A DNA stretch of 62,955 nt, filler included, from Basidiobolus ranarum (taxonomy: Eukaryota), in NCBI GenBank assembly GCA_040143965.1. It is 49 parts of 49 records of this genome, joined end to end, with 100 filler letters (N's around TTAATTAATTAA, not from the genome) between each part and the next. Parts side by side here need not be neighbours in the genome. Positions count along the whole stretch, not along the records: positions 25,802 to 26,989 come from JASJQH010012958.1; 48 more parts are not named here. One strand, given 5' to 3'. The notes under the pieces were generated by a model, which was given only the letters and a program-made list of their open reading frames with translations, had not been told where the DNA came from and made no database searches. The position numbers and the translations under genes were made by a program. The stretch's first letter is position 1; the number at the start of each line of letters is the position of its first letter. Positions 2,585 through 47,563 of this stretch are shown here, piece by piece.

Positions 2585-3776
2585 TCTTAAAGTTTTGATG
2601 AAATCACCCAAATATAGATCATTGATCCAATACCAAAGTACTCACCATAAAGCTGATGGTATTACCAATATACTTGATGGATATCACTACCAGAATCTGA
2701 AAAGTCAAGGTTTCTTTGAGAACACGTATGATCATGCATTTGCATTGGCTCTGGATGGTTTCTCACTAAACAAATATACCGTTGGAAAGGCTTGCTGGCC
2801 AATAATTTTAATCAACTTAAATCTTCCTCCTTCTGAACGGTATAAGAGTCATAATATTTTGATACTATCCATCATATCTGGACCTAAATCACCAGTGCTT
2901 ATAGATAGCTTCTTGGAGCCTTTGATTGCGGAATTTGAACGGTTATCTAATGGGGTTCAGATGGGTGAATATTTTATTAAAGCTAATATCATTGTATGTA
3001 TTGGTGACACTCCTGCCATCAGTAAACTTGGAGGTTTTCGCGGGCACAATGCACTATCTTGCTGTAGATTTTGTCAAATCAATGGAGTTTACTCTAACAG
3101 GCATACGCATTACTACTATCCAAATACAACACTAAACTCCATGATTTTACCGTCAAGAGCCCGGTCAGATTTCAACATGATCACTGATATCAATTCACCA
3201 AATAGTCAGTCTAACATCAAACTTGGTATTAGCCGTAAGCCTAAGATTATATTGCTAAAGGGGATCAGCTGGAGCCAGAGCTTCCCATTAGGCACCATGC
3301 ACTTACTATTCAACAACATTCCAATACTACTTACTCAGCTATATAGTGGAAAATTCAATATGAATGAGCCATTTGAGATAGGATCAAATTTGAATTGATT
3401 GGGAAAATGCTTGAAAACGTCAAGATACCATCATATTTTACCAGGACTCCCATCAATATCCACTTGTCTAGGCATTTATTCAGATGCAAAGACTGGAAGT
3501 ATTGGATTGGTATATATTCAAGTGGAATTTTGAAAAGATTTCTGCCTGATAGGTATTGGCAACATTGGGAGATGTTTGTGTATATTGTTAATATATTCTT
3601 ATGGCATCAACTCACATTGGGAGATCTCAGGCAGATACAGCAACTGTGCAAAGATTTTGTAATTCGATATGAAAAACTTTATTACAGGTTTAAAGAAGAT
3701 AGACTGAATCTATGGCGGTATTAAATACATTCCCTGCTGCATCTTTCACGATGCTTAGAGATTATAGGCCCTTGCT
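2585..3776 (+). pseudogene. CACTA/EnSpm (Transposase_21-type) transposase core, frameshifted
   Basis: Motifs ALDGF, WPIILINLNLPPSER, ISGPKSP, GDTPAISKLGGFRGHNALSCCRFC, MHLLFNNI, CKDWKYW. Confidence 0.9.
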
Positions 3777-8530: not shown

Positions 8531-8919
8531 TGTTGAAGTTTATTGTCTTTATCATATTTGTTATCTCTATCTTTATACACCTAGCTATTTCATATATCAC
8601 ATGTAAGCTAGTTAAAGTTACTTAGTCAAATATCACTTAACTAAAAATCAGAACATATATTATATATATATGTGAATAATGTGAGAATTAGCAATTCCAT
8701 ATTGGAAATTTCAAACTCATCCAAATTGCCCCAAAGATAGCTCATTTTACTACCACAGATGTTTTGAACACAACCCCAGTGTTAGTTTTCTGTATTTCCA
8801 CCAAAATGTATAAATGCTTTATTTCTGGACAATAAATAATTATCTCACAAAGCTATTCACAACACCACTGTTCTAAAGTTCCTCCAAACAGCCCATATTT
8901 CCCAATAGGTTATGAGCCC
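8531..8919 (+). mobile_element. Complete Copia LTR family A (8531-8907, TGTTG...CAATA) plus PBS GGTTATGAGCCC
   Basis: About 10 copies in the window; followed by PBS here and at 60323; preceded by a purine tract in other copies. Confidence 0.9.
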
Positions 8920-10330: not shown

Positions 10331-11520
10331 AGGATTGGGTGATCGCGAAGAATAGTCTCCCAAGTGCTTTCAAACTTGATAAGATCAAAATCGCCAACAA
10401 GTTCAAACTGTTGTTGAATGTGATAATAGTCCGCATCCTTGAACATACCGGCAATGAGACCTTCCTGAAGTGGAGTACATGGAAGGATGTCTTCGATAAG
10501 ACCGCGATCAACTCCGATACTCGGCAGACTTTCGTTGTAGAAATGATTAAACTCTTCTTCAGAAAAGCTCAGCATGCTGAAATCACTTCGAGTATGCTCA
10601 GTGGTGTATATCTTGGCACAACAGTCTATTACATCACTAAGAGAGTCTTGCCATAAGAGAAGCCATTGAGACACAGATTCGTCTGAATGCAGATTGCTAT
10701 TATACGTAACTTCAGCTTTGAAGCAACCATGGTCCACACTTGCATTGATATCAAATACATGGTCTCGTCTCAGCTCATTGTCTACGTCGCCTAGATCAAA
10801 ATCGAAGGGTGCTTCAACGGGTTGGAAGAATGAGTTCTGATTCTCCAGCTGTTGGAAACGACCAAGATAGTTGAACCCAATTTGAATAATATCATCCTTG
10901 AACGGATTCTCTGGCTTGTTGCTCAGATATCGAAGTAGCCCATAGACAATTCCATTTCCTGGTAGGAGTTTTCGTTGATCCTTGACCCGCTTCAGAACAC
11001 TCAACTGATCGCAGTTTGCTCCAATCTCCACCACAAACGGATAGATTGTGGTGAACCAACCAACAGTTCTTGACACATCAATCCCATCGCGCCAGGCTTC
11101 TCTCCCATGCCCTTCCAAGCCAATAGTCATGCTATCCACACTGAATGCTTTGCAGTATGCAATAGCCAACGACGATATCATCAGATCGGTCGCTTCAGTT
11201 TGGAATGGACGGTTGCATTTCCCAAAGAGTTGCTCTGTTTGAGTGGGTGATAGTGTGAAGGACACATACTTGCTTGAGCTCATAGTATTGAGATCTAAGA
11301 GTGTTATATCATTCACGACAGGCTCAGAAATCTTCTGAGATGGCCACATGTTGAAATCCAGCTCTTGCGCATATTCATTCAACATCTCACTCCATTGCAT
11401 GAATGTCATTGACTTGTATCCGCACTCTTTCCCTTGAAGCAGTAGCTCCAAATCCTCCCAAATGATACGCCATGACACCAGATCAACGACCAAATGATGT
11501 ATGGTCATGAATAGCAACTG
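10331..11520 (-). CDS. Non-ribosomal peptide synthetase fragment: epimerization (E) domain followed by start of a condensation domain
   Basis: Open across the whole contig; HHLVVDLVSWRII, EGHGRE, SRTVGWFTTIYP, YGLLRY, FNYLG E-domain motifs, then PCTPLQEG. Confidence 0.93.
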
Positions 11521-11620: not shown

Positions 11621-12413
11621 TGATGGCCAAACATAAAGAGTCAATCAAGTTTTGGAACAATATTTGCAATGCACTATCAACTATAATCAGGATAATTGGA
11701 CACAACTCTTGCCTCTTGCTGAATTTGCTTACAACAACTCTTATCATACCTCAACAAAACAAACTCCCTTCTTTGCAAATTATGGATTCCATCCTTGTTT
11801 CACTATTCACCCACCATCCAATCTACCTTGCCCTGCTGCCTCAGACCATGCCACTTACCTTAAGGACATCCATAAACAATTAATATCTGAGTTGGAGCAT
11901 GCTCAATCCCAATACAAGAACTTTGCTGATAAGAAAAGAAAGCCAAGCCCAGATCTCAAGCCAGGAGATTATGTTTGGCTACTCCGGAAGAATATCAAAA
12001 CCACTAGACCTTGTGATAAACTTGATCATAAAAGACTAGGGCCTTTTAAGATTATTAAGCAAATCAATTCAGTAGCCTTCTGCCTTGAACTCCCAGCCCA
12101 TTTCAAAGTCCACAATGTATTCCATGTGTCTCTCTTAGAGCCACATGCCAGAAACACCTTCCAGGGCCGATCCATTGACCAACCACCAGCAATCCAAGTG
12201 GAAGAACACCCTGAATATGAAGTTAACAAAATTCTAGATTCCAGAATTTACCGACGTAAATTGCAATATTTAGTGGACTGGAAAGGATATTCAACAAATG
12301 ATCAATCATGGGAGCCAGCAACAAATCTTTCTAATTCCAAGGAACTTTGCCAGGAGTTTCATGAAGCCTACCCAGAAAAACCTGGCCCTATGATGTCTGG
12401 AAGCCATCACTAA
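11621..12413 (+). mobile_element. Ty3/Gypsy chromovirus integrase C-terminus with chromodomain
   Basis: LLPLAEFAYNNS, KLDHKRLGPF, HNVFHVSLL, EYEVNKILDSR..QYLVDWKGY..SWEP. Confidence 0.95.
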
Positions 12414-18069: not shown

Positions 18070-19258
18070 ACAGGCTCCCAAATACTTTAACAGGTTATGA
18101 GCCCTGGGCTTGCACTCTCTGTAATGTCTACTTCTCAAATCTATGGAACTTTTCCCTCTTCTGAAAAATTGGATGGAACCATTTATCAAGTTTGGAAAAT
18201 TAAAATCAAAATGCTGCTGCAAGAAAAAGAACTTTGGGACATTGTTGTAGGAGAAGCAAACAATGCAAAACTATCTGAAACCAAAGTTTTACTCCTGGTT
18301 GAAAAAGAACAAAGTGCCTTTAAAACAATTTGTCTTAATGTTAAAGACAAATTGCTAGTTCAATGTTCAAGAGCTAAAACTGCCAGGAAGGTATGGAAAG
18401 CCTTGAAAGACACCTACCAATCAAGTTCTGCTACCAACAAGATGTTTCTAAGAAGACAATTCTTTAACTTATAGATGAAGCAAGGAGAAGACATTAAATC
18501 ACTAATTAATAGAGTCACTATTTTAGTGAATGAAATGGAATGCATTGGAGTACCTACTACTGATCAAGATATAATAGTTACAGTCCTGAATAGCCTGCCA
18601 CATGAGTTTCAGAGCCTAGTAATGGCTCTAGAATCAAGAACTGAAAATATGACTTTAAATTATATATTTGGCAGACTTCTGGATGAAAATATGTGCAAAT
18701 CAGGATCCAACCAAAAGAATGAAGAAAATGCTTTAATAGGCTATGGGAAACCTTGCTATAAATGGTCAAAAGCACTTTAAGAAGAAAAGTAACACATTCT
18801 GTGATTACTGTAAAAGAACTGGTCATTTAAGCAAAGATTGCTTTAAAAGAATTGTAAAAAAAGAAAACCATACTGAATCTGGAAATGTGATCACAACAGA
18901 AGATCACTTGTTCATTTCTGCTCTATCTATGACTACCAACATGGATGCTCAGACATGGTATATTGATTCTGGAGCTTCCCAACATTACACAAATGAAAAA
19001 CATTGGTTTGTGGATTATGAAGAAATCCCATTTAGAAAGGTTTTCATGGGAGATGACTGCATATTGGATGCTATTGGAATGGGAACAATTCAAGTCAATT
19101 TAACTGGAGCTTCTGAAGAGAAAGTATATACTTTTAAGGATGTACTACATGTTCCAGATATTGCCAAGAATTTAATATCTGTATGCAAGGCCACCTCAGA
19201 AGGGCTAAAATTCAATTTTGATAAGTCAGGATGCACCATCACTGATCAAAATGGGAAT
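18070..19258 (+). mobile_element. Copia family B 5' end: LTR tail, PBS, gag and protease (stop and frameshift)
   Basis: TTTAACA|GGTTATGAGCCC; EKLDG..YQVWKIK, CDYCKRTGHLSKDC, WYIDSGASQH. Confidence 0.93.
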
Positions 19259-19358: not shown

Positions 19359-20547
19359 CCATTGGGAACTCCCAGAATGTATAGCAAGGGCCTATAATCT
19401 CTAAGCATTGTGAAAGATGCAGCAGGGAATGTATTGAATACCGGCATAGATTCAGTCTATCTTCTTTAAACCTGTAATAAAGTTTTTCATATCCAATTAC
19501 AAAATCTTTGCACAGTCACTATATCTGCCTGAGATCTGCCAATGTGAGTTGATGCTGTAAGAATATATCAACAATATCAACAAACAACTTCCAATGTTGC
19601 CAATACTTATCAGGCAGAAATCTTTTCTGAATTCCACTTGAATATACACAAATCTAATACTTCCAGTCTTTGCATTTGAATATTCACCTAGATGAGTGGA
19701 TATTGATGGGAGTCCTGGTAAAATATGATGTTATCTTGACATTTTCAAGCATTTTGCCAATTGATTCAAACTTTGATCCTATCTTGAATGGTGCGTTCAT
19801 ATTGAATTTTCCACTATATAGGCAAGTAAGTAGTATTGGAATGTTGTTGAATAGTAAGTGCAGGTGCCTAATGGGAAGCTCTGGCTCCAGCTGATCCCCT
19901 TTAGCAATATAATCTTATGCTTACAGCTAATACCAAGTTAGATGTTAGACTGACTATTTGGTGAATTGATAGCAGTGACCATGTTGAAATCTGGTCAGGC
20001 TTTTGATGGTAAATCATGAAGTTTAGTGTTGTATTTTGATAGTAGTAATGTGTATGCCGGTTAGAGTAAACTCCATTGATTTGACAAAATCCACAGCAAG
20101 ATAGTGCATTGTGCCTGCAAATACCTCCAAGTTTACTGATGGCAGGAGTGTCACCAATACATACAACAATATTGGCTTTAATAAATTGTTCACCTATCTG
20201 AACCCCATTAGATAACCATTCTAATTCCGCAATCAAAGGCTCCAAGAAGCTATCTGTAAGCACTGGTGATTTAGGTCCAGATATGATGGAATAGTATCAG
20301 ATTATTATGACTCTTATATCATTCAGAAAGAGGAAGATTTAAATTGATTAAAATTATTGCCCAGCAAGCCTTTCCAACGGTATATTTGTTTAGTGAGAAA
20401 CCATCCAGAGCCAATGCAAATGCATGATCATACATTTTCTCAAAGAAACCTTGACTTTTCAGATTCTGGTAGTGATATCCATCAAGTATATTGGTAATAC
20501 CATCAGCTTTACAGTGAGTACTTTGGTATTGATTCAATGATCTATAT
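19359..20547 (-). pseudogene. CACTA transposase core, degenerate
   Basis: Close match to 2620-3776. Confidence 0.9.
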
Positions 20548-21326
20548 NNNNNNNNNNNNNNNNNNNNNNNNNNNNNNNNNNNNNNNNNNNNTTAATTAAT
20601 TAANNNNNNNNNNNNNNNNNNNNNNNNNNNNNNNNNNNNNNNNNNNNCAGTCTTTGTTTCCCAACAAAGACACTAATACCAAGCTGGTTGATGAGTAGTA
20701 GTGCGCCGTCCGTAAAGGGAAGTGTGGGATGTGTTCGTTTAGCTCTTCGGAACTTCTGAACTATCTCAGTTGATGATCTTGCCGGTCGATTATTCCAACG
20801 ACCAGGCGAGGATGGTCTGCACATTCTGACAGCTTGTTATCTACTTCAAATATCATTTGCTTTCTATACAAAAACTAAACGTTATCCAACATTTTAAATC
20901 TGCTATTCATGTAAGCATAAAAAGATTGAATCTTAAGCAATTTGTCAGCAAGTGACGTGAAGTGAACAGACATCTAACATTCATGTCAAAGATCTATTTC
21001 GATATAGACAATAATTCGATTTGTGATCAACAACATTAGGAATACACATGAAAATGAAATTACTAGTGATGAAACTGCCTTTCCCAATCCTTACCATACT
21101 TCACGGTTGTTGGCTAATGGTCATCCATTTACAATGATTTTTAAATATTGAATCTAATGAATTAATTGTTTGCTGTTGAATCTATACTTCAATCAACAAC
21201 TTCGAAACATGACCCACCTTAAAATTTAGAATATCAATCAATGTATTTACTACTTGGTACTTGGAACAATAACTGCACTTTCTAAACTAGATAAGTCTGT
21301 GGAATCAATCACCTATATATTAGTAT

Positions 21327-25801: not shown

Positions 25802-26106
25802 GTCATGCATCAGCTGAAGTCTTGGCAGTGAAAGATCATTGGTTATGAATCTTGTGACTCATATTGACTTGTGTCTAGGTAGATGACTCAGAGGTTAATA
25901 CTGATTGGATAATGATCATGTGATAGGTCATATGATCTGATAGAAGGGATAAGCAAATAGATAGTTGGTCAGGTGATAGGTCACATGATAAAGTCACTGG
26001 ATGAGGTCAGGTGACTAATTAGCAATAATGATAAACTAAACAGATATTCATGCAAGTTGTATAGATATGGCGTAAGTTAAACAACTTTGTATGTTGGTGC
26101 ACAACA
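25802..26106 (-). mobile_element. LTR family D, terminal part
   Basis: Matches 44142-44446 and the reverse of 43642-43710; shared terminus TGTTGTGCACC. Confidence 0.75.
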
Positions 26107-26242
26107 AAGTTGATTAAAATTATTGGCCAGCAAGCCTTTCCAATGGTTTATTTGTTTAGTGAGAAACCATCCAGAGCCAATGCAAATGCATGATCATATG
26201 TGTTCTCAAAGAAACATTGACTTTTCAGATTTTAGTTGTAAT

Positions 26243-26589
26243 TGTTGAAATTAGCATTGCCAAAACACCTATATAGTCATATATAGCTTAACACTTAGTT
26301 ATCTTATAATTCACTAAGATATTATCAATTATTCTCAATCAGAATTTACTTAGAATATGTTTACCAACTTAGAAGTTCTCAGATAAGTAGATTTTTCAAA
26401 CTGGTGCTAGAAGCCCCAAACCTTGCAAATATGTTCCTGGGACTTTCCTTAACATATTCTATATGTCAGTTTGTTTACATCTTGACAAAACTATAAATGT
26501 CAACTTTGTACTCAATAAATCAATAAGTGAAACCACCAATTCCTCTAATTCTCCAAACCACTTCCAACAGGCTCCCAAATACTGTAACA
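26243..26589 (+). mobile_element. Complete Copia LTR family B (TGTTG...AACA)
   Basis: Copies at 36698-37007, 46695-47042 (-, next to PPT) and 45305-45632 (-); followed by PBS. Confidence 0.9.
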
Positions 26590-26934
26590 GGTTATCAGCC
26601 CTGGTTAGTGCCAAATCCAGAAATCCTGCTTGAGGGGGAATGCTGAAAGTCTGGTGACTTGTGGTACAAGCAGTAATTCCTGAAGAGGAAAATATGGAGT
26701 ATGGTGACTGCATCTGAACACAAAGTCTAAGGACAATCAGTTGCTTGTGTAGCTGAAATGCCAAAGTACCATACATTGACAGACTAGGTTAAGGTTCCCT
26801 AGCAATATAGGCATAGCATACAAGGACTGGTAGCTCAGTGGTTAGAGCACCTTGCTGGAGTGAAGGAGGTCCCAGGTTCAAACCCTGGCCAGACCAATAT
26901 TTCTCCCTTGATAATTTCAACAGGTTATAAGCCC
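26590..26934 (+). mobile_element. TRIM-like miniature LTR element: PBS, about 30 bp, PPT, 282-bp LTR (family C) containing a tRNA-like sequence, PBS
   Basis: GGTTATCAGCCC at 26590, GAGGGGGAA at 26632-26640, LTR 26641-26922 TG(C/T)TGAAA...TTTCAACA, GGTTATAAGCCC at 26923; second LTR copy at 33527-33658 (-). Confidence 0.75.
26824..26896 (+). tRNA. tRNA-derived 73-nt cassette (pseudo-tRNA) inside an LTR
   Basis: Acceptor stem GGACTGG/CCAGACC (1 mismatch), D arm GCTC/GAGC, A box TAGCTCAGTGG, T arm CCAGG-TTCAAAC-CCTGG; anticodon arm imperfect. Confidence 0.75.
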
Positions 26935-27089
26935 CAAGCTTGCACTCTCTGTAATGTCTACTTCACAAATTTATGGAACTTTTCCCTCANNNNNNNNNNN
27001 NNNNNNNNNNNNNNNNNNNNNNNNNNNNNNNNNTTAATTAATTAANNNNNNNNNNNNNNNNNNNNNNNNNNNNNNNNNNNNNNNNNNNN

Positions 27090-28377: not shown

Positions 28378-29565
28378 GATATCATCTTCTGTTGACTACT
28401 TTTGCTTCTTGAGTTGATTCCAGGGTAGACTATATCTGTTAGAAATTGAAGGCGTTTGACTAAGTCTTCAGTGTTGATTGGTTTGAGTAGAACATCTTGA
28501 TAGTTCTGTAGTGGGTTGAACATTCTTCCAAACATAAGTGAGAATGGAGTGGATCCATGGAGTGCAGCAATCTTGGTATTGATAGCATATTGAACCATTG
28601 GGATTGACTTGTCCCAATTTTTCTTGACTCCTTTGATGGATTTACGGATTATGTTCACAGAAGTTTGAACATGTCTTTCTGCAAGTCCATTAGCTTTAGG
28701 ATGATAGGGAGTGATCAGTCTGTGATCAATGGCAGAGTTACGGCAGAGTTCTTTGATGACTTGGTTAACAAACTCAGTTCCATTATCAGATTGAATGATT
28801 TTGGGGAATCCAAAGAGGCAGAATAGCTTGAATAAGGCTTGGGCAATGGTAGTAGCAAATTTGTCTGGTAGAGCTTTGAGAAAAACAAAACGTGTACAAA
28901 CATCTACTATCACAAAGAGGTAGTGATTTCCATCATCACTGGTTGTGAATGGTCCAGCTAGATCAATAGCAATATGATCCATAGGGAGTTCAGCATGTAT
29001 TGCAGTCAAAGGGTGAAATCCATGGCATGTGATATTGTAAAGTTGACATTCTCTGCAAGACTTTACATAATCAAGGCAGTCAGACTTGATGTTGGGCCAG
29101 TGGTATCCATTGGAGTGCAACTTCTTCATAAGTGTATCAGCTCCAAAGTGTCCTAGTAGGTGGCATTGCTGAATGAGATTGTTCCTTTCATTTTGCGGTG
29201 GGCAAATTCTGGAATCTGGGTCTTGCTGGGGGATTGAGTTGGTAGTAGTTGTAAGTTTGCTGATTACATCAGTAATCACATGTCCCTCCCAGGGGGAAGT
29301 TGGAAAGAGTCTGGAGAGGTGATCAGGTAGAATATTGAGAATTCCAGGGCGGTGAATTATAGTGTAATCATAATCCAGTAGAGTATCCAGCCAGTTGGTC
29401 AGCATTGGTGTTAGAGTCTTCTGAGTGTGAATGTAAACAAGTGCTCAGTGGTTGGTGTAAAGAGTAAAATGATTTCCCCAGAGGTACTGGTGAAATTTCT
29501 TGAGGGCAAACACAATGGCTAGTAATTCCTTCTTAGTAGCAGAATAATTACGTTCAGCAGGCTGC
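28378..29565 (-). mobile_element. Ty3/Gypsy pol fragment (RNase H and integrase)
   Basis: NYSATKKELLAIVFAL, HLLGHFG..CRECQ, IDLAGP, IIQSDNGTEF, PYHPKANGLAER. Confidence 0.95.
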
Positions 29566-33526: not shown

Positions 33527-33658
33527 ATGGGTCTTAGGTATTTCAGCTATACAAGCAACTGATTGGCCGTAGACTTTGTGTTCAGATGCAGTCACCATAC
33601 ACCATATTTTCCTCTTTAGGAATAACTGACTGCACCACAAGTCAGCAGACTTTCAACA
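33527..33658 (-). mobile_element. 5' part of LTR family C (the tRNA-bearing LTR)
   Basis: Reverse complement matches 26641-26772 and begins TGTTGAAAG. Confidence 0.85.
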
Positions 33659-34149
33659 GACATATATTGGAAAGCTCATGAATCAATGTATCACATTTCT
33701 GCATCCTCTTTATTGGTTACTGATGGGGCAGACATAAATAGATGATTCCTATCAGTTCTCACTGTATTTGCTTGTACTTATAACTATTAAATAGGACTAT
33801 TGGATATGCTTAGAGCATAAAAAACATGCCTGTTAAGCATGGGAAAAAATTTGAGGTGATTAGGGAAGTTTTGATAAAATAGTAAAAATTGGTAAAAGTG
33901 ACCCAATTGATATTTTTATTCATTAAAGCAATATGCTCACATTGTGGTATTGCTGCTTCTCATTATGGCTGGAATATAAAGCCAAAAGTATCTGAATATT
34001 TGCATGCATAGTGTTTTGAAATTGTATTGAAGTACACTCAGAAATTTGCCATTCAATAGTTGGTTTTTCCCATCAATGTTGTAAACTTAGATAGCATATG
34101 CTAAATACATTGACAACTCTGGCAATAGTGTCCTAACATATTATTTTGT

Positions 34150-34601
34150 GATCTGCCATCACCATCAAAAGTTGCTTCATAGTCTCATTGGGCAGTGGTA
34201 GATATTTACTTAGAGCATCATTTGTCTTTCAAGTTGAGGCTACAATGGTTGATCTGTTCCATACATGCAAAAGTGCCACTGGAATTATAACTCTGCAGTC
34301 CCAAAGCCAAATTTTCTATTTCTCATTTCATGCTTTCTATCCATTTGAGTTTTTTTGTACATTTTCTTGCTGACATCTTAAGGCATGAAGATGGAGTATT
34401 CTTTTCAAAGTAGAGTCAATAGTTGCTTCCACTTTTGTCAAATGCCCCTTTCACCAACTCTGTGAAATTTATTACCAACTCCCATGTTTCTAAGCTAGAA
34501 TTCATAGTGAATTCCTGGGCATCTGTAAAATCAATGTGCATGCACTGCTTTGCACCACCTTCACCTTGATTTGACTACACATGCAACATTTTGGAAGTGG
34601 T
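34150..34601 (-). pseudogene. Degenerate copy of the Myb/SANT-like ORF
   Basis: Colinear with 57980-58433. Confidence 0.8.
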
Positions 34602-34712
34602 ATTGGAATTAAAATTTCGTAAAGTCCGTAATTGGGTTTGAGAAATAAAATCCGAAAGATTGGAATTAAAATTTCGTAAAGTCCGTAATTGGGTTTGAAA
34701 AATAAAATTCGA
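34602..34712. repeat. About 57-bp tandem repeat, two copies before the contig end
   Basis: ATTGGAATTAAAATTTCGTAAAGTCCGTAATTGGGTTTGA.AAATAAAAT.CGA twice. Confidence 0.85.
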
Positions 34713-42525: not shown

Positions 42526-43142
42526 CCTACGCCTACTGAGTCCAGAAATAAGGAAGGAACTCTGCTAGATGCTGTGTCCCACTTTTCCGCATTACCTGGT
42601 GGTGTAGAGGCCTTGGCTAAAGTCGCCTTCGGTAAAACAAAACGGGAATACTTGAAAGCCCATTCAGCCATTATTCAAAAGCCGGTCACAAAACAAGGAA
42701 TCCAGGTTCTCCGAAATGCTTTAGCCAAAGCCCCTGGATAGTAAGTACTCATTTATATGAGAATCATTATGTAATCTAATTTATTAAATCCATTTTCAAT
42801 TATAGTGGTTACTTTTTGTTCGATCTCTATGGCGGAGCAGTTGCCAGAGTTGATCCCAAAGCTACAGCCTTTGTCCATCGTGAAGATACCAAACTCGTGG
42901 TTCAAATGATTATTGAGCCACCACAGGGTAGCTCTAAAACTCAAGCTTGGTTATCCGAGGCTTACAAATCTGTAAAACCACATTTCTCTTCTTCAGCTTA
43001 CCAGAATTATATCGATCGTGATTTAAAGGATTGGCAATCAGCATACTTCAGAGTAAATTTTAAACGTCTGGTAGAGATCAAGAAGAAATATGATCCCACC
43101 AATGTATTCAATTTTGCCCAAAGTATTCCTGTTAAAGCCTAA
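42526..43142 (+). CDS. Berberine-bridge-enzyme-like FAD oxidoreductase, C-terminus; intron 42741-42805
   Basis: YGGAVARV...TAFVHR, AYQNYID, RLVEIKKKYDPTNVFNFAQSIP; GTAAGT...TAG intron keeps frame. Confidence 0.92.
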
Positions 43143-45095: not shown

Positions 45096-46279
45096 ATGTT
45101 GGAAATTTCAAACTCATCCAAATTGCCAAAGATAGCTCATTTTACTCCCACAGATGTTCTGAACACAACCCCAGTGTTAGTTTTCTGTATTTCCACCAAA
45201 AAGTATAAATGCTGTATTTCTGGACAATACACAATTATCTCACAAAAGCTATTCACAACTCCACTTTTCTAAAGTTCCTCCAAACAGCCCATATTTTCCC
45301 AATAGTTAGAAGTGGTTTGGAAGATTTACAGAAATTGGTGGTTTTCATTTGGTGATTTAATGAGTGGAAAATTGATATTTATAGTTTTGTCAAGATGTAA
45401 ACAAACTAATGTGTAGAATGTGTTAGAGAATATCCCAGGAACATGTGTGCAAAGTATGGGTCTTATAGTGCAGGTTTGAATAATTGTGAAGTCTAAGAAT
45501 TTCTAGGTTGGTAAAAATTATTGAAGTAAATTCCAATTGAGAATAATGAGTAATATCTTAGTGAAGTATAGGATAACTAAATACTAAGCAATATATGATC
45601 ATATAGGTGGTCAGGCAATGCTAATTTCAACAATTTCTTTGGCATAATGAGGCTACATCTTGGAATTTAAAGCAACCACCCACTGTAGTAATTTCAACAA
45701 CCAAAGCTCTATACATGGCTGGTTGTGAAGCAGCAAAAGAAGCAATATGGTTAAGAGTACTCCTACCAAATATGGGCTATTCTGAGAATTTGTTAACTAC
45801 AATATTTCAAGATAATCAAAGTTGTATCACATTGGCTAGATATCCCTCATTTCATACTTTAAGCAAACATATAAATTTTAGACATCAATTGGTTAGAGAG
45901 TCTATAGAGAATAAGCTTATTAACTTACCTTATTATTCTACAGAAGACATGATTGTTAAGGTTAGCATTGCCTAAACACAGATATAATCATATATAGCTT
46001 AATATTTTGTCATGGTATATTTCACTATCATATCATCAGTTATTCTTAATGGGAATTTACTTAGAATATTTTCATCAACCAAGATGTTCTCAGATATGAA
46101 CATTTTTCAAACTTGTAGTAGAAGGCCTTATTGGGAAAATGTGGGCTGTTTGGAGGAACTTTAGAAAAGTGGAGTTGTGAATAGCTTTGTCAAATAATTG
46201 TTTATTGTCCAGAAATAAAGCATTTATACTTTTTGGTGGAAATACAGAAAACTAACACTGGGGTTGTGTTCAGAACATC
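45096..46279. mobile_element. Nest of LTR A and LTR B pieces with a Copia RNase H fragment (45640-45960)
   Basis: EAAKEAIWL, QDNQSCI, SKHI. Confidence 0.85.
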
Positions 46280-46694
46280 NNNNNNNNNNNNNNNNNNNNN
46301 NNNNNNNNNNNNNNNNNNNNNNNTTAATTAATTAANNNNNNNNNNNNNNNNNNNNNNNNNNNNNNNNNNNNNNNNNNNNCACATGTTCCTGGGACTTTCC
46401 TAAACACATTCTACATGTTAGTTTGCTGACATCTTGATAAAACTATAAATGTCAACTTACAACTCAATACATCAATAAGTGAAAACCACCAATTTCTCTA
46501 ACTTTCCAAACCACTTCCAACAGACTGCTAAATACTTTAACATTCAGACTCAAGACTCTAGCTTGGCAGAAAAGATATAGTTTGTAGTGGATCATCTATC
46601 TACATAAGTGCCTTCATTTTCTATGTCACTAATCCTTGACATTGGCTTGCTTGGTAACCATCTTTAGATTCATTATATACATTTAAGATAGTTA

Positions 46695-47563
46695 TGTTAA
46701 AGTATTTGGGTACCTGTTGGAAGTGGTTTGGAGAGTTAGAGGAATTGGTGGTTATCACTTACTGATTTATTGAGTAGAAAGTTGACATTTATAGTTTTGT
46801 CAAGATGTAAACAAACAAATGTGTGGAATGTGTTAAAAAAGGTCCCAGGAGCATGTGTGCAATGTTTGGGGCTTCTGGCACAAGTTTGAAAAATCTATAT
46901 ATCTGAGAACTTCTAAGTTGGTAAAAATATTCTAAGTTAATTCCAAATAAGAATAATGGATAATATCTTAGTTCTATATAAGATAACTAAGTACTAAGCT
47001 ATATATGACTATATAAGCATTTAGGCAAAGCTAATTTCAACACTCTCCCTCAACCAAATAGTCATATAAACTAATCCTAATAAAGGTCTAAATTTCTCAA
47101 ATTTCTGTCTAGCTAATGGTTTGGTTAATATATCAGGAATAATGTCTTCTGTGAAACAATAAGTTAAGTCAATAGACTTATTCTCTGTAGTCTCTCTAAT
47201 GAAGTGATGCTTAATATCTACATGTTTGCTTCTATTATGAAATGTGGGTTTTTTAGATAATTTGATACAACTTTGATTATATTGAAATATTGTAGTTGGT
47301 GAATTTTGAGAATAATCCAAATCTGTTAAGAGTTATCTTCAACATATTGCTTCTTTTGTTGCTTCACAGGCAGCCATATGTTCAGCTTCAGTTGTTGAAA
47401 GTGCTATGGTAGGTTGTTTCTTTGAATTCTAAGAAATAGCTCCATTGCAGCAAAGAAATAAGTATCCCGTTGCACATCTCCTGTCTTCAATATCTCTTCC
47501 CCAATTTGCATCTTTCAAATATTGGAAAATCCACTTAACTGCTATGATTTGATCAGATCCATT
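46695..47563 (-). mobile_element. Copia family B 3' end: RNase H, PPT and LTR
   Basis: RSKHVDIKHHFIRE, DILTKPL; GAGGGAGAG then TGTTGAAATTAGC. Confidence 0.9.

Follow-up and report, generated by a model that had tools for sequence, protein, structure and literature searches.

The closest described systems are the Helenus elements, also termed TRIMp3, which are TRIMs with a tRNA-derived sequence in their LTRs (Kojima 2024, PMC10886601). Fungal Helenus elements depend on Copia and are associated with 5-bp target duplications, and most of their families have a PBS for the tRNA anticodon loop, with iMet as the dominant type (PMC10886601). In the accessible part of DataS1 of that paper, ggttatgagccc appears 48 times and opens internal portions, the LTRs with a visible start mostly begin with tgttg, and the polypurine tracts (PPTs) end in ggggg(aa); the tRNA-like part, in the sequences accessible there, lies near the 3' end of the LTR and is followed by a T-rich stretch and then by a terminal aca (PMC10886601). 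In the visible rows of Table S1, fungal Helenus LTRs measure 116-274 bp, with internal portions of 51-237 bp, and the hosts named in the accessible parts of the paper are Pucciniales and three Agaricomycetes (Agaricus, Coprinopsis and Amylostereum), those same parts making no mention of Basidiobolus, Zoopagomycota or Mucoromycota (PMC10886601). In rusts, tRNA predictions are inflated by LTR-borne pseudo-tRNAs (Helenus paper, PMC10886601). Two further systems are relevant, namely Cassandra, a plant TRIM with a 5S rRNA Pol III promoter in its LTRs, and Ty5 and Drosophila copia, in which the PBS pairs with the anticodon-loop region of tRNA-iMet and not with the tRNA 3' end (PMC10886601). In the literature on TRIMp3, Kojima 2024 was the sole relevant paper among the matches listed, and the literature on Basidiobolus retrotransposons contained no such element by title or by the start of the abstract among the matches listed.

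The DNA analysed here, referred to as the window, is a stretch of 62,955 bases in which 49 separate contigs, each about 1.18-1.19 kb long, are arranged with the longest first and joined by linkers (N44-TTAATTAATTAA-N44) across which adjacency is meaningless. The tRNA-bearing unit lies on contig 25802-26989, and all comparisons within the window cover 58 kb of real sequence. Two ORFs with host genes are present. ORF 10333-11520 (minus strand, 396 aa) spans an entire contig, and Pfam (E 2.5e-35) identifies its product as the condensation domain of an NRPS; the proteins that match it best are from Basidiobolus ranarum, with 66, 56 and 44% identity, this species accounts for 7 of the 16 top rows, and bacterial NRPSs come next. 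ORF 42780-43139 (plus strand) encodes the C-terminal BBE (berberine-bridge) domain of a FAD-linked oxidase and matched three proteins, the top two from B. meristosporus (77%) and B. ranarum (65%). From these NRPS and BBE genes we read the source as a Basidiobolus-like fungus and not a rust.

The arrangement described on this contig by the sequence-only reading, namely a PBS, about 30 bp of internal sequence, a PPT, a 282-bp unit with inverted termini and a second PBS, is present in all its parts when the sequence is read directly (Table 1), and the unit, here called LTR2, behaves as an LTR. Indeed, its TG..CA termini carry an 8-nt terminal inverted repeat, a PPT adjoins it on the 5' side and a PBS on the 3' side, and an independent copy has a matching 5' boundary. 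Both flanking signals are rare: the PBS motif AGGTTATNAGCCC is found 7 times in the window versus 0.28 expected, and G-rich purine runs of at least 9 nt number 13 in 2 x 58,155 (116,310) strand-positions, one of them ending exactly at the 5' base of LTR2. Since a rare PBS and a rare PPT abut the opposite ends of one unit, chance is excluded as an explanation of the LTR2 features. The right PBS variant is unique in the window, and the left and the right PBS are both altered at the base opposite the first position of the anticodon. The 27-nt spacer between the left PBS and the PPT had no significant second match in a word-size-7 BLAST search of all 49 contigs.

Table 1. Coordinates of the LTR2 locus, of its second copy and of other transposon features in the window
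Feature	Position	Strand	Basis or remark
LTR1, 347 bp, TGTTGAAATT...CTGTAACA, Copia-A family	26243-26589	+	5'-LTR position: PBS downstream, no PPT upstream
Left PBS GGTTATCAGCCCTGG	26590-26604	+	Read directly
Spacer, 27 nt	26605-26631	+	Read directly
Polypurine tract GAGGGGGAA	26632-26640	+	Directly adjoins LTR2 5' end
Mini-internal region, 51 bp (PBS, spacer and PPT)	26590-26640	+	
LTR2, 282 bp, TGCTGAAAG...TTTCAACA	26641-26922	+	Bounds from abutting PPT, PBS and second copy
U3-like part of LTR2, 183 nt 5' of the tRNA-like start	26641-26823	+	Inferred from LTR layout
tRNA-derived segment, 73 nt	26824-26896	+	ARAGORN, Rfam
A box TAGCTCAGTGG	26831-26841	+	Intact
Anticodon position GGA	26857-26859	+	
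B box GGTTCAAACCC	26875-26885	+	Intact
LTR2 tail, 26 nt (AATATTTCTCCCTTGATAATTTCAACA region)	26897-26922	+	T-rich start, LTR terminus at end
Second (right) PBS GGTTATAAGCCC	26923-26934	+	GGTTAT-AGCCC type; adjoins LTR2 3' end
Copia-A leader and gag codons 1-12 (ATG at 26954)	26935-26989	+	Contig end at 26989
Partial LTR2 copy, first 132 nt	33527-33658	-	88.6% identity over 132 nt (BLAST)
tnp2/CACTA-type transposase fragments (Pfam Transposase_21)	2586-3395	+	Second fragment at 19904-20296, strand -
Gypsy/chromovirus integrase C-terminal SH3 and chromodomain	11637-12410	+	
Gypsy/chromovirus integrase zinc finger and core	28380-29444	-	

The partial copy lies at the start of contig 33527-34712. 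Its identity with LTR2 begins exactly at TGTTGAAAG, next to a flank that is unrelated and non-purine; this exact start in unrelated sequence fixes the 5' boundary of LTR2, as had been claimed for the copy from the sequence alone, and the lack of a PPT in the upstream flank makes it a 5' or a solo LTR. The copy is on another contig, however, and it breaks off at LTR position 132, short of the tRNA-like segment (184-256), so that it speaks for the boundary and not for the cassette. Only two copies of LTR2 are present in the 58 kb, and the tRNA position is reached in one of the two. Both are embedded or cut by contig ends, and an LTR2-internal-LTR2 unit or a target duplication is visible in neither. 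Exact-word scans of metagenomes, with one 22-mer from LTR2 and one from the junction between the tRNA-like part and the tail, and a scan of prokaryote genome contigs returned no match.

The cassette itself is supported by two tools. ARAGORN finds a single tRNA in the window, 73 nt long with anticodon GGA, and with the Rfam tRNA model the segment reaches 58.5 bits, where the gathering score is 29 and the window-wide E value 4.4e-10, in agreement with the tRNA-like segment noticed earlier, with its A and B boxes, imperfect anticodon arm and GGA without the long arm. In the Rfam alignment, two pairs are non-standard (acceptor 3:70 and the inner pair of the anticodon stem) and the variable region is short. 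A Ser anticodon normally comes with a long variable arm. The short variable region is thus at odds with GGA, which makes the segment a tRNA-derived relic and not a credible functional tRNA. When the RNA of the segment is folded alone, its MFE structure is not a cloverleaf and is no better than that of shuffled sequences (z = -0.21). The T-run behind it consists of just TTT (26900-26902), and the T-rich start of the tail that separates the segment from the 3' end of LTR2 is a possible weak Pol III stop. A word-size-7 BLAST search of the contig against all 49 contigs found no second copy of the tRNA part in the window, and a weak Rfam search (E up to 10) found no further tRNA-like or 5S-like segment there.

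LTR2 has several hallmarks of Helenus, as it contains a tRNA sequence with A and B boxes inside the LTR, a PBS after the LTR and a PPT before it. The agreement extends to detail in the accessible sequences of fungal Helenus elements (LTR-1_PGr, Helenus-1_AmAr and Helenus-1_CCin), where, as in LTR2, the A/B-box segment is near the 3' end and is followed by a T-rich tail and ..ACA. Likewise, LTR2 begins with TGTTGA, has a GGTTATGAGCCC-type PBS for the tRNA-iMet anticodon loop, and is preceded by a G-rich PPT ending in ..GGGGGAA, all as in the accessible fungal sequences. Its 282 bp fall in or just above the Helenus range visible in the table, and the internal 51 bp match the shortest value visible there. 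In the accessible entries, comparison by eye gives Helenus-1_AmAr from Amylostereum the same termini as LTR2 (tgttgaaa...tttcaaca) and a tRNA-like part in which, with one gap, 60 of the 73 aligned positions agree, and Helenus-1_AB has a 21-nt stretch of the T arm in common with LTR2. Such resemblance of termini and tRNA module to Agaricomycete Helenus, as judged by eye, would imply a lineage that is very old or that was horizontally transferred between fungal phyla; the tRNA-like modules could also be similar through independent capture of one conserved tRNA. Five words of 12-15 nt from LTR2 and the spacer had no match in the accessible DataS1, in which line breaks can hide matches, as they did for the T-arm word; since it is improbable that line breaks hid all five, the accessible DataS1 appears to hold no near-identical published family. 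Unlike the Helenus elements in the accessible parts of the 2024 paper, the present one appears to be hosted by a Basidiobolus-like fungus, and unlike Helenus, in which two like LTRs enclose a short non-coding interior and the whole element is under 1000 bp, the locus has an unrelated left LTR and a Copia gag start on the 3' side.

The other described systems are more distant. Like Cassandra, the LTR2 element is a putative miniature LTR element whose LTR contains the promoter of a small-RNA gene for Pol III, the promoter role being assigned here by analogy; unlike Cassandra and Ajax, its module is tRNA-derived, with no 5S match in the window (Rfam, E up to 10), and the host is a fungus and not a plant. 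SINE2 elements have a tRNA head at the 5' end, a LINE-dependent tail and no LTR features. LTR2 has in common with them a tRNA-derived A/B-box part as a putative internal promoter and differs in that this part lies 183 nt inside the unit, in the TG..CA termini, PPT and PBS, and in the lack of a LINE-type or A-rich tail. As in Ty5 and copia, the PBS motif here is of the tRNA-iMet anticodon-loop type and stands next to Copia gag starts, in keeping with the earlier proposal of half-tRNA-Met priming, this being the type used by Copia; unlike the LTR2 element, Ty5 and Drosophila copia-type elements are autonomous and have Pol II promoters in their LTRs. All in all, LTR2 is rather likely to be the repeat that ends a non-autonomous LTR retrotransposon of the Helenus type (TRIMp3) in a Basidiobolus-like fungus. 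The suspicion that the class might not be new, voiced earlier with reference to Helenus, was justified, as Helenus/TRIMp3 has been in print since 2024 (PMC10886601), and LTR2 is probably an additional member in a fungal lineage not listed there.

The immediate surroundings of LTR2 belong to another family, referred to as Copia-A. Upstream lies LTR1, with six other alignments on four contigs at 76-88% identity (BLAST), and the PPT TTGAGGGAGAG stands in front of the LTR1 copy that contig 46380-47563 bears on its minus strand. The G+C content is 44% in LTR2 versus 31% in LTR1; the two agree in roughly their first 8 nucleotides and resemble each other loosely at the end, and their bodies align no better than shuffled sequences, which rules out LTR2 as an LTR1 with an insertion. 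Downstream of LTR2, the PBS, leader and gag start at the right end of the contig match contig 18070-19258 with 89.7% identity over 78 nt; that contig opens with the final 23 nt of an LTR1-type LTR and continues with a PBS and a Copia gag-protease ORF. Among the 36 coding nucleotides of gag, three differ, all of them synonymous and at third positions. The ORFs of contig 18070-19258 contain Retrotran_gag_2, DUF4219 and Pol_BBD, and an overlapping partner contig contains gag_pre-integrs (Pfam), by which Ty1/Copia gag and pol domains are borne out for the flanking Copia-A family. In the protein search, the best match of the Copia gag-protease had 64% identity and gave no information on the host taxon.

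The locus thus runs LTR1, PBS, 27 nt, PPT, LTR2, PBS, Copia-A leader and gag, and the free-standing miniature element with LTRs on both sides of 51 bp that the sequence-only reading had proposed is not what is found, the left LTR being unrelated and the 3' side running into Copia gag. The same reading had named a coding element beside this LTR as the observation that would count against it; this is in part the case, as the 3' flank of LTR2 is visible in one copy only and there consists of Copia PBS, leader and coding gag sequence. A 16-nt direct repeat that contains the PBS (26586-26601 and 26919-26934, 15 of 16 positions identical, spacing 333) brackets exactly one 333-bp period made of the mini-internal region and LTR2. 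The simplest description of the locus is therefore a Copia-A element with one 333-bp miniature period between its 5' LTR and a duplicated PBS. A SINE-type insertion with the 16-nt repeat as its target duplication was rejected, as the second copy of LTR2 puts the 5' end at 26641 and not at 26602. The absence of TTTT from the 333-nt period was also discarded as a signal, since 222 of 2107 windows of 333 nt likewise lack TTTT. Elsewhere in the window, five more AGGTTATGAGCCC PBSs are found on the plus strand, at 8907, 18092, 40616, 56654 and 60322, after at least three different LTR ends, and a Copia gag start comes after each one that no contig end truncates. Their occurrence after at least three LTR ends indicates that several Copia families here use one tRNA-iMet anticodon-loop primer.

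Other explanations of the locus were weighed against the Helenus-type reading. The most serious of them takes LTR2 as a normal LTR that belongs to an autonomous Copia subfamily and happens to include a tRNA-derived segment, with the 51-bp internal region as a deletion derivative in a tandem or recombinant array and with no miniature Pol III family at all. It would account for the PBS, leader and open gag start directly after LTR2, the three synonymous differences from contig 18070-19258 hint at functional ancestors, and "not a few" Repbase LTRs have tRNA-like pieces, only some of them being TRIMs (Kojima, PMC10886601). The same leader and gag family is, however, tied to LTR1 on contig 18070-19258, and LTR1 is found just upstream here; moreover, a PPT adjoins the 5' end of LTR2 after a mere 51 bp of internal sequence, and an extra event is needed to bring LTR1 to the left. 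We consider this explanation unlikely, yet not negligible. In a highly fragmented and repeat-rich assembly in which several families have one PBS in common, a chimera that jumps from family to family at this PBS might be suspected, in which case the order of parts seen here would not exist in the genome. Nevertheless, identity between copies is 76-90%, none of the three junctions is spanned by an exact match of at least 16 nt to other contigs of the window, and the right PBS is unique in the 58 kb compared; this combination of divergent copies, no junction-spanning match and a unique PBS makes a graph chimera of contig 25802-26989 very improbable.

The remaining two explanations concern the cassette. 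A one-off tRNA pseudogene or SINE head in a single LTR2 copy, in a family normally without it, is compatible with the fact that the segment is visible in one copy and that the other is cut at LTR position 132. Against it, neither a target duplication nor an A-rich tail or SINE body is found around 26824-26896, and the segment is placed as in the fungal Helenus LTRs accessible in the 2024 paper, with a similar T-rich tail and terminus (PMC10886601), so that we hold such an insertion to be quite improbable. As for a working tRNA gene amid transposon debris, the high Rfam score is set against a GGA (Ser) anticodon without long variable arm, two non-standard stem pairs, a fold no better than shuffles whose MFE structure is not a cloverleaf, and a position between matched LTR termini, which leaves this explanation with hardly any credit.

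If LTR2 belongs to a Helenus-type element, its mode of propagation can be proposed by analogy with known systems. As in Cassandra and Helenus, the A/B-box module may act as an internal Pol III promoter, with a start at about 26824 and a U3 of about 183 nt. Pol III transcription from the 5' LTR would read past the weak T-rich stop and on through PBS, mini-internal region and PPT. In the 3' LTR, the leaky T-rich stop behind the module would end the transcript and define R, which would measure about 75-80 nt, with about 20 nt for U5. Acting in trans, a Copia partner would carry out reverse transcription from the PBS, primed by a tRNA-iMet fragment, and from the G-rich PPT, and the integrase of this partner would recognise the common TGTTGAAA...AACA ends.

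The composite locus itself could be derived from such a cycle in a single step of copy-choice, which is the most economical route that we infer. The minus strand on Copia-A RNA would reach the PBS, switch there to the PBS of a co-packaged miniature RNA and copy its U5-R; it would then jump to the 3' R of the miniature RNA, whose U3, PPT, spacer and PBS would be copied once. Normal plus-strand transfer would come last and give the product LTR1, PBS, spacer, PPT, LTR2, PBS, gag ... LTR1, a predicted order that equals the observed one up to the contig end. Such an origin would point to Copia-A as the partner. That the locus is a fossil of copy-choice by reverse transcriptase between a Pol III-type miniature RNA and a packaged Copia RNA, with Helenus-type elements present in an early-diverging, Basidiobolus-like lineage from which none is reported, is a tentative proposal to which we give a modest chance. 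If true, it would identify, by direct physical evidence, the autonomous element that mobilises a Helenus-type parasite. The autonomous partner of such elements is usually only guessed from PBS similarity, and a composite locus of this kind could name the partner, here Copia-A, through a recombination scar.

The LTR2 locus opens no new class, and its copies look old and inactive. In particular, the repeats on contig 25802-26989 differ by 4-24% from their relatives in the window (BLAST), and this divergence, together with the mutations in both PBSs, indicates old copies and does not suggest present activity; the LTR2 element is thus probably old and inactive. If confirmed genome-wide, the finding would extend the range of Helenus/TRIMp3 beyond Basidiomycota to a Basidiobolus-like fungus, and in genomes of this kind LTR-borne pseudo-tRNAs may swell the number of predicted tRNAs.

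The rest of the window is a dense mosaic of repeats, with 356 rows of BLAST matches between contigs. Pfam searches of 22 ORFs identified Copia gag, protease and integrase, Gypsy/chromovirus integrase and chromodomain, and tnp2/CACTA transposase, besides the NRPS condensation and BBE domains. Contig 45096-46279 is nested, in that two inverted arms (contig positions 1-210 and 1033-1184) from another Copia LTR family surround a 320-bp middle piece as well as two LTR1 copies that are themselves inverted. Two tandem 54-nt copies of 96% identity (34602-34712) lie at the end of the contig whose start is the partial LTR2 copy. A U3 snoRNA match at 20644-20834 (plus strand) opens a contig that also has an LTR1 copy; it scores 43.2 bits with the Rfam U3 model, above gathering, and 42.3 bits with Fungi_U3, below gathering, a weak match that agrees with a fungal origin.
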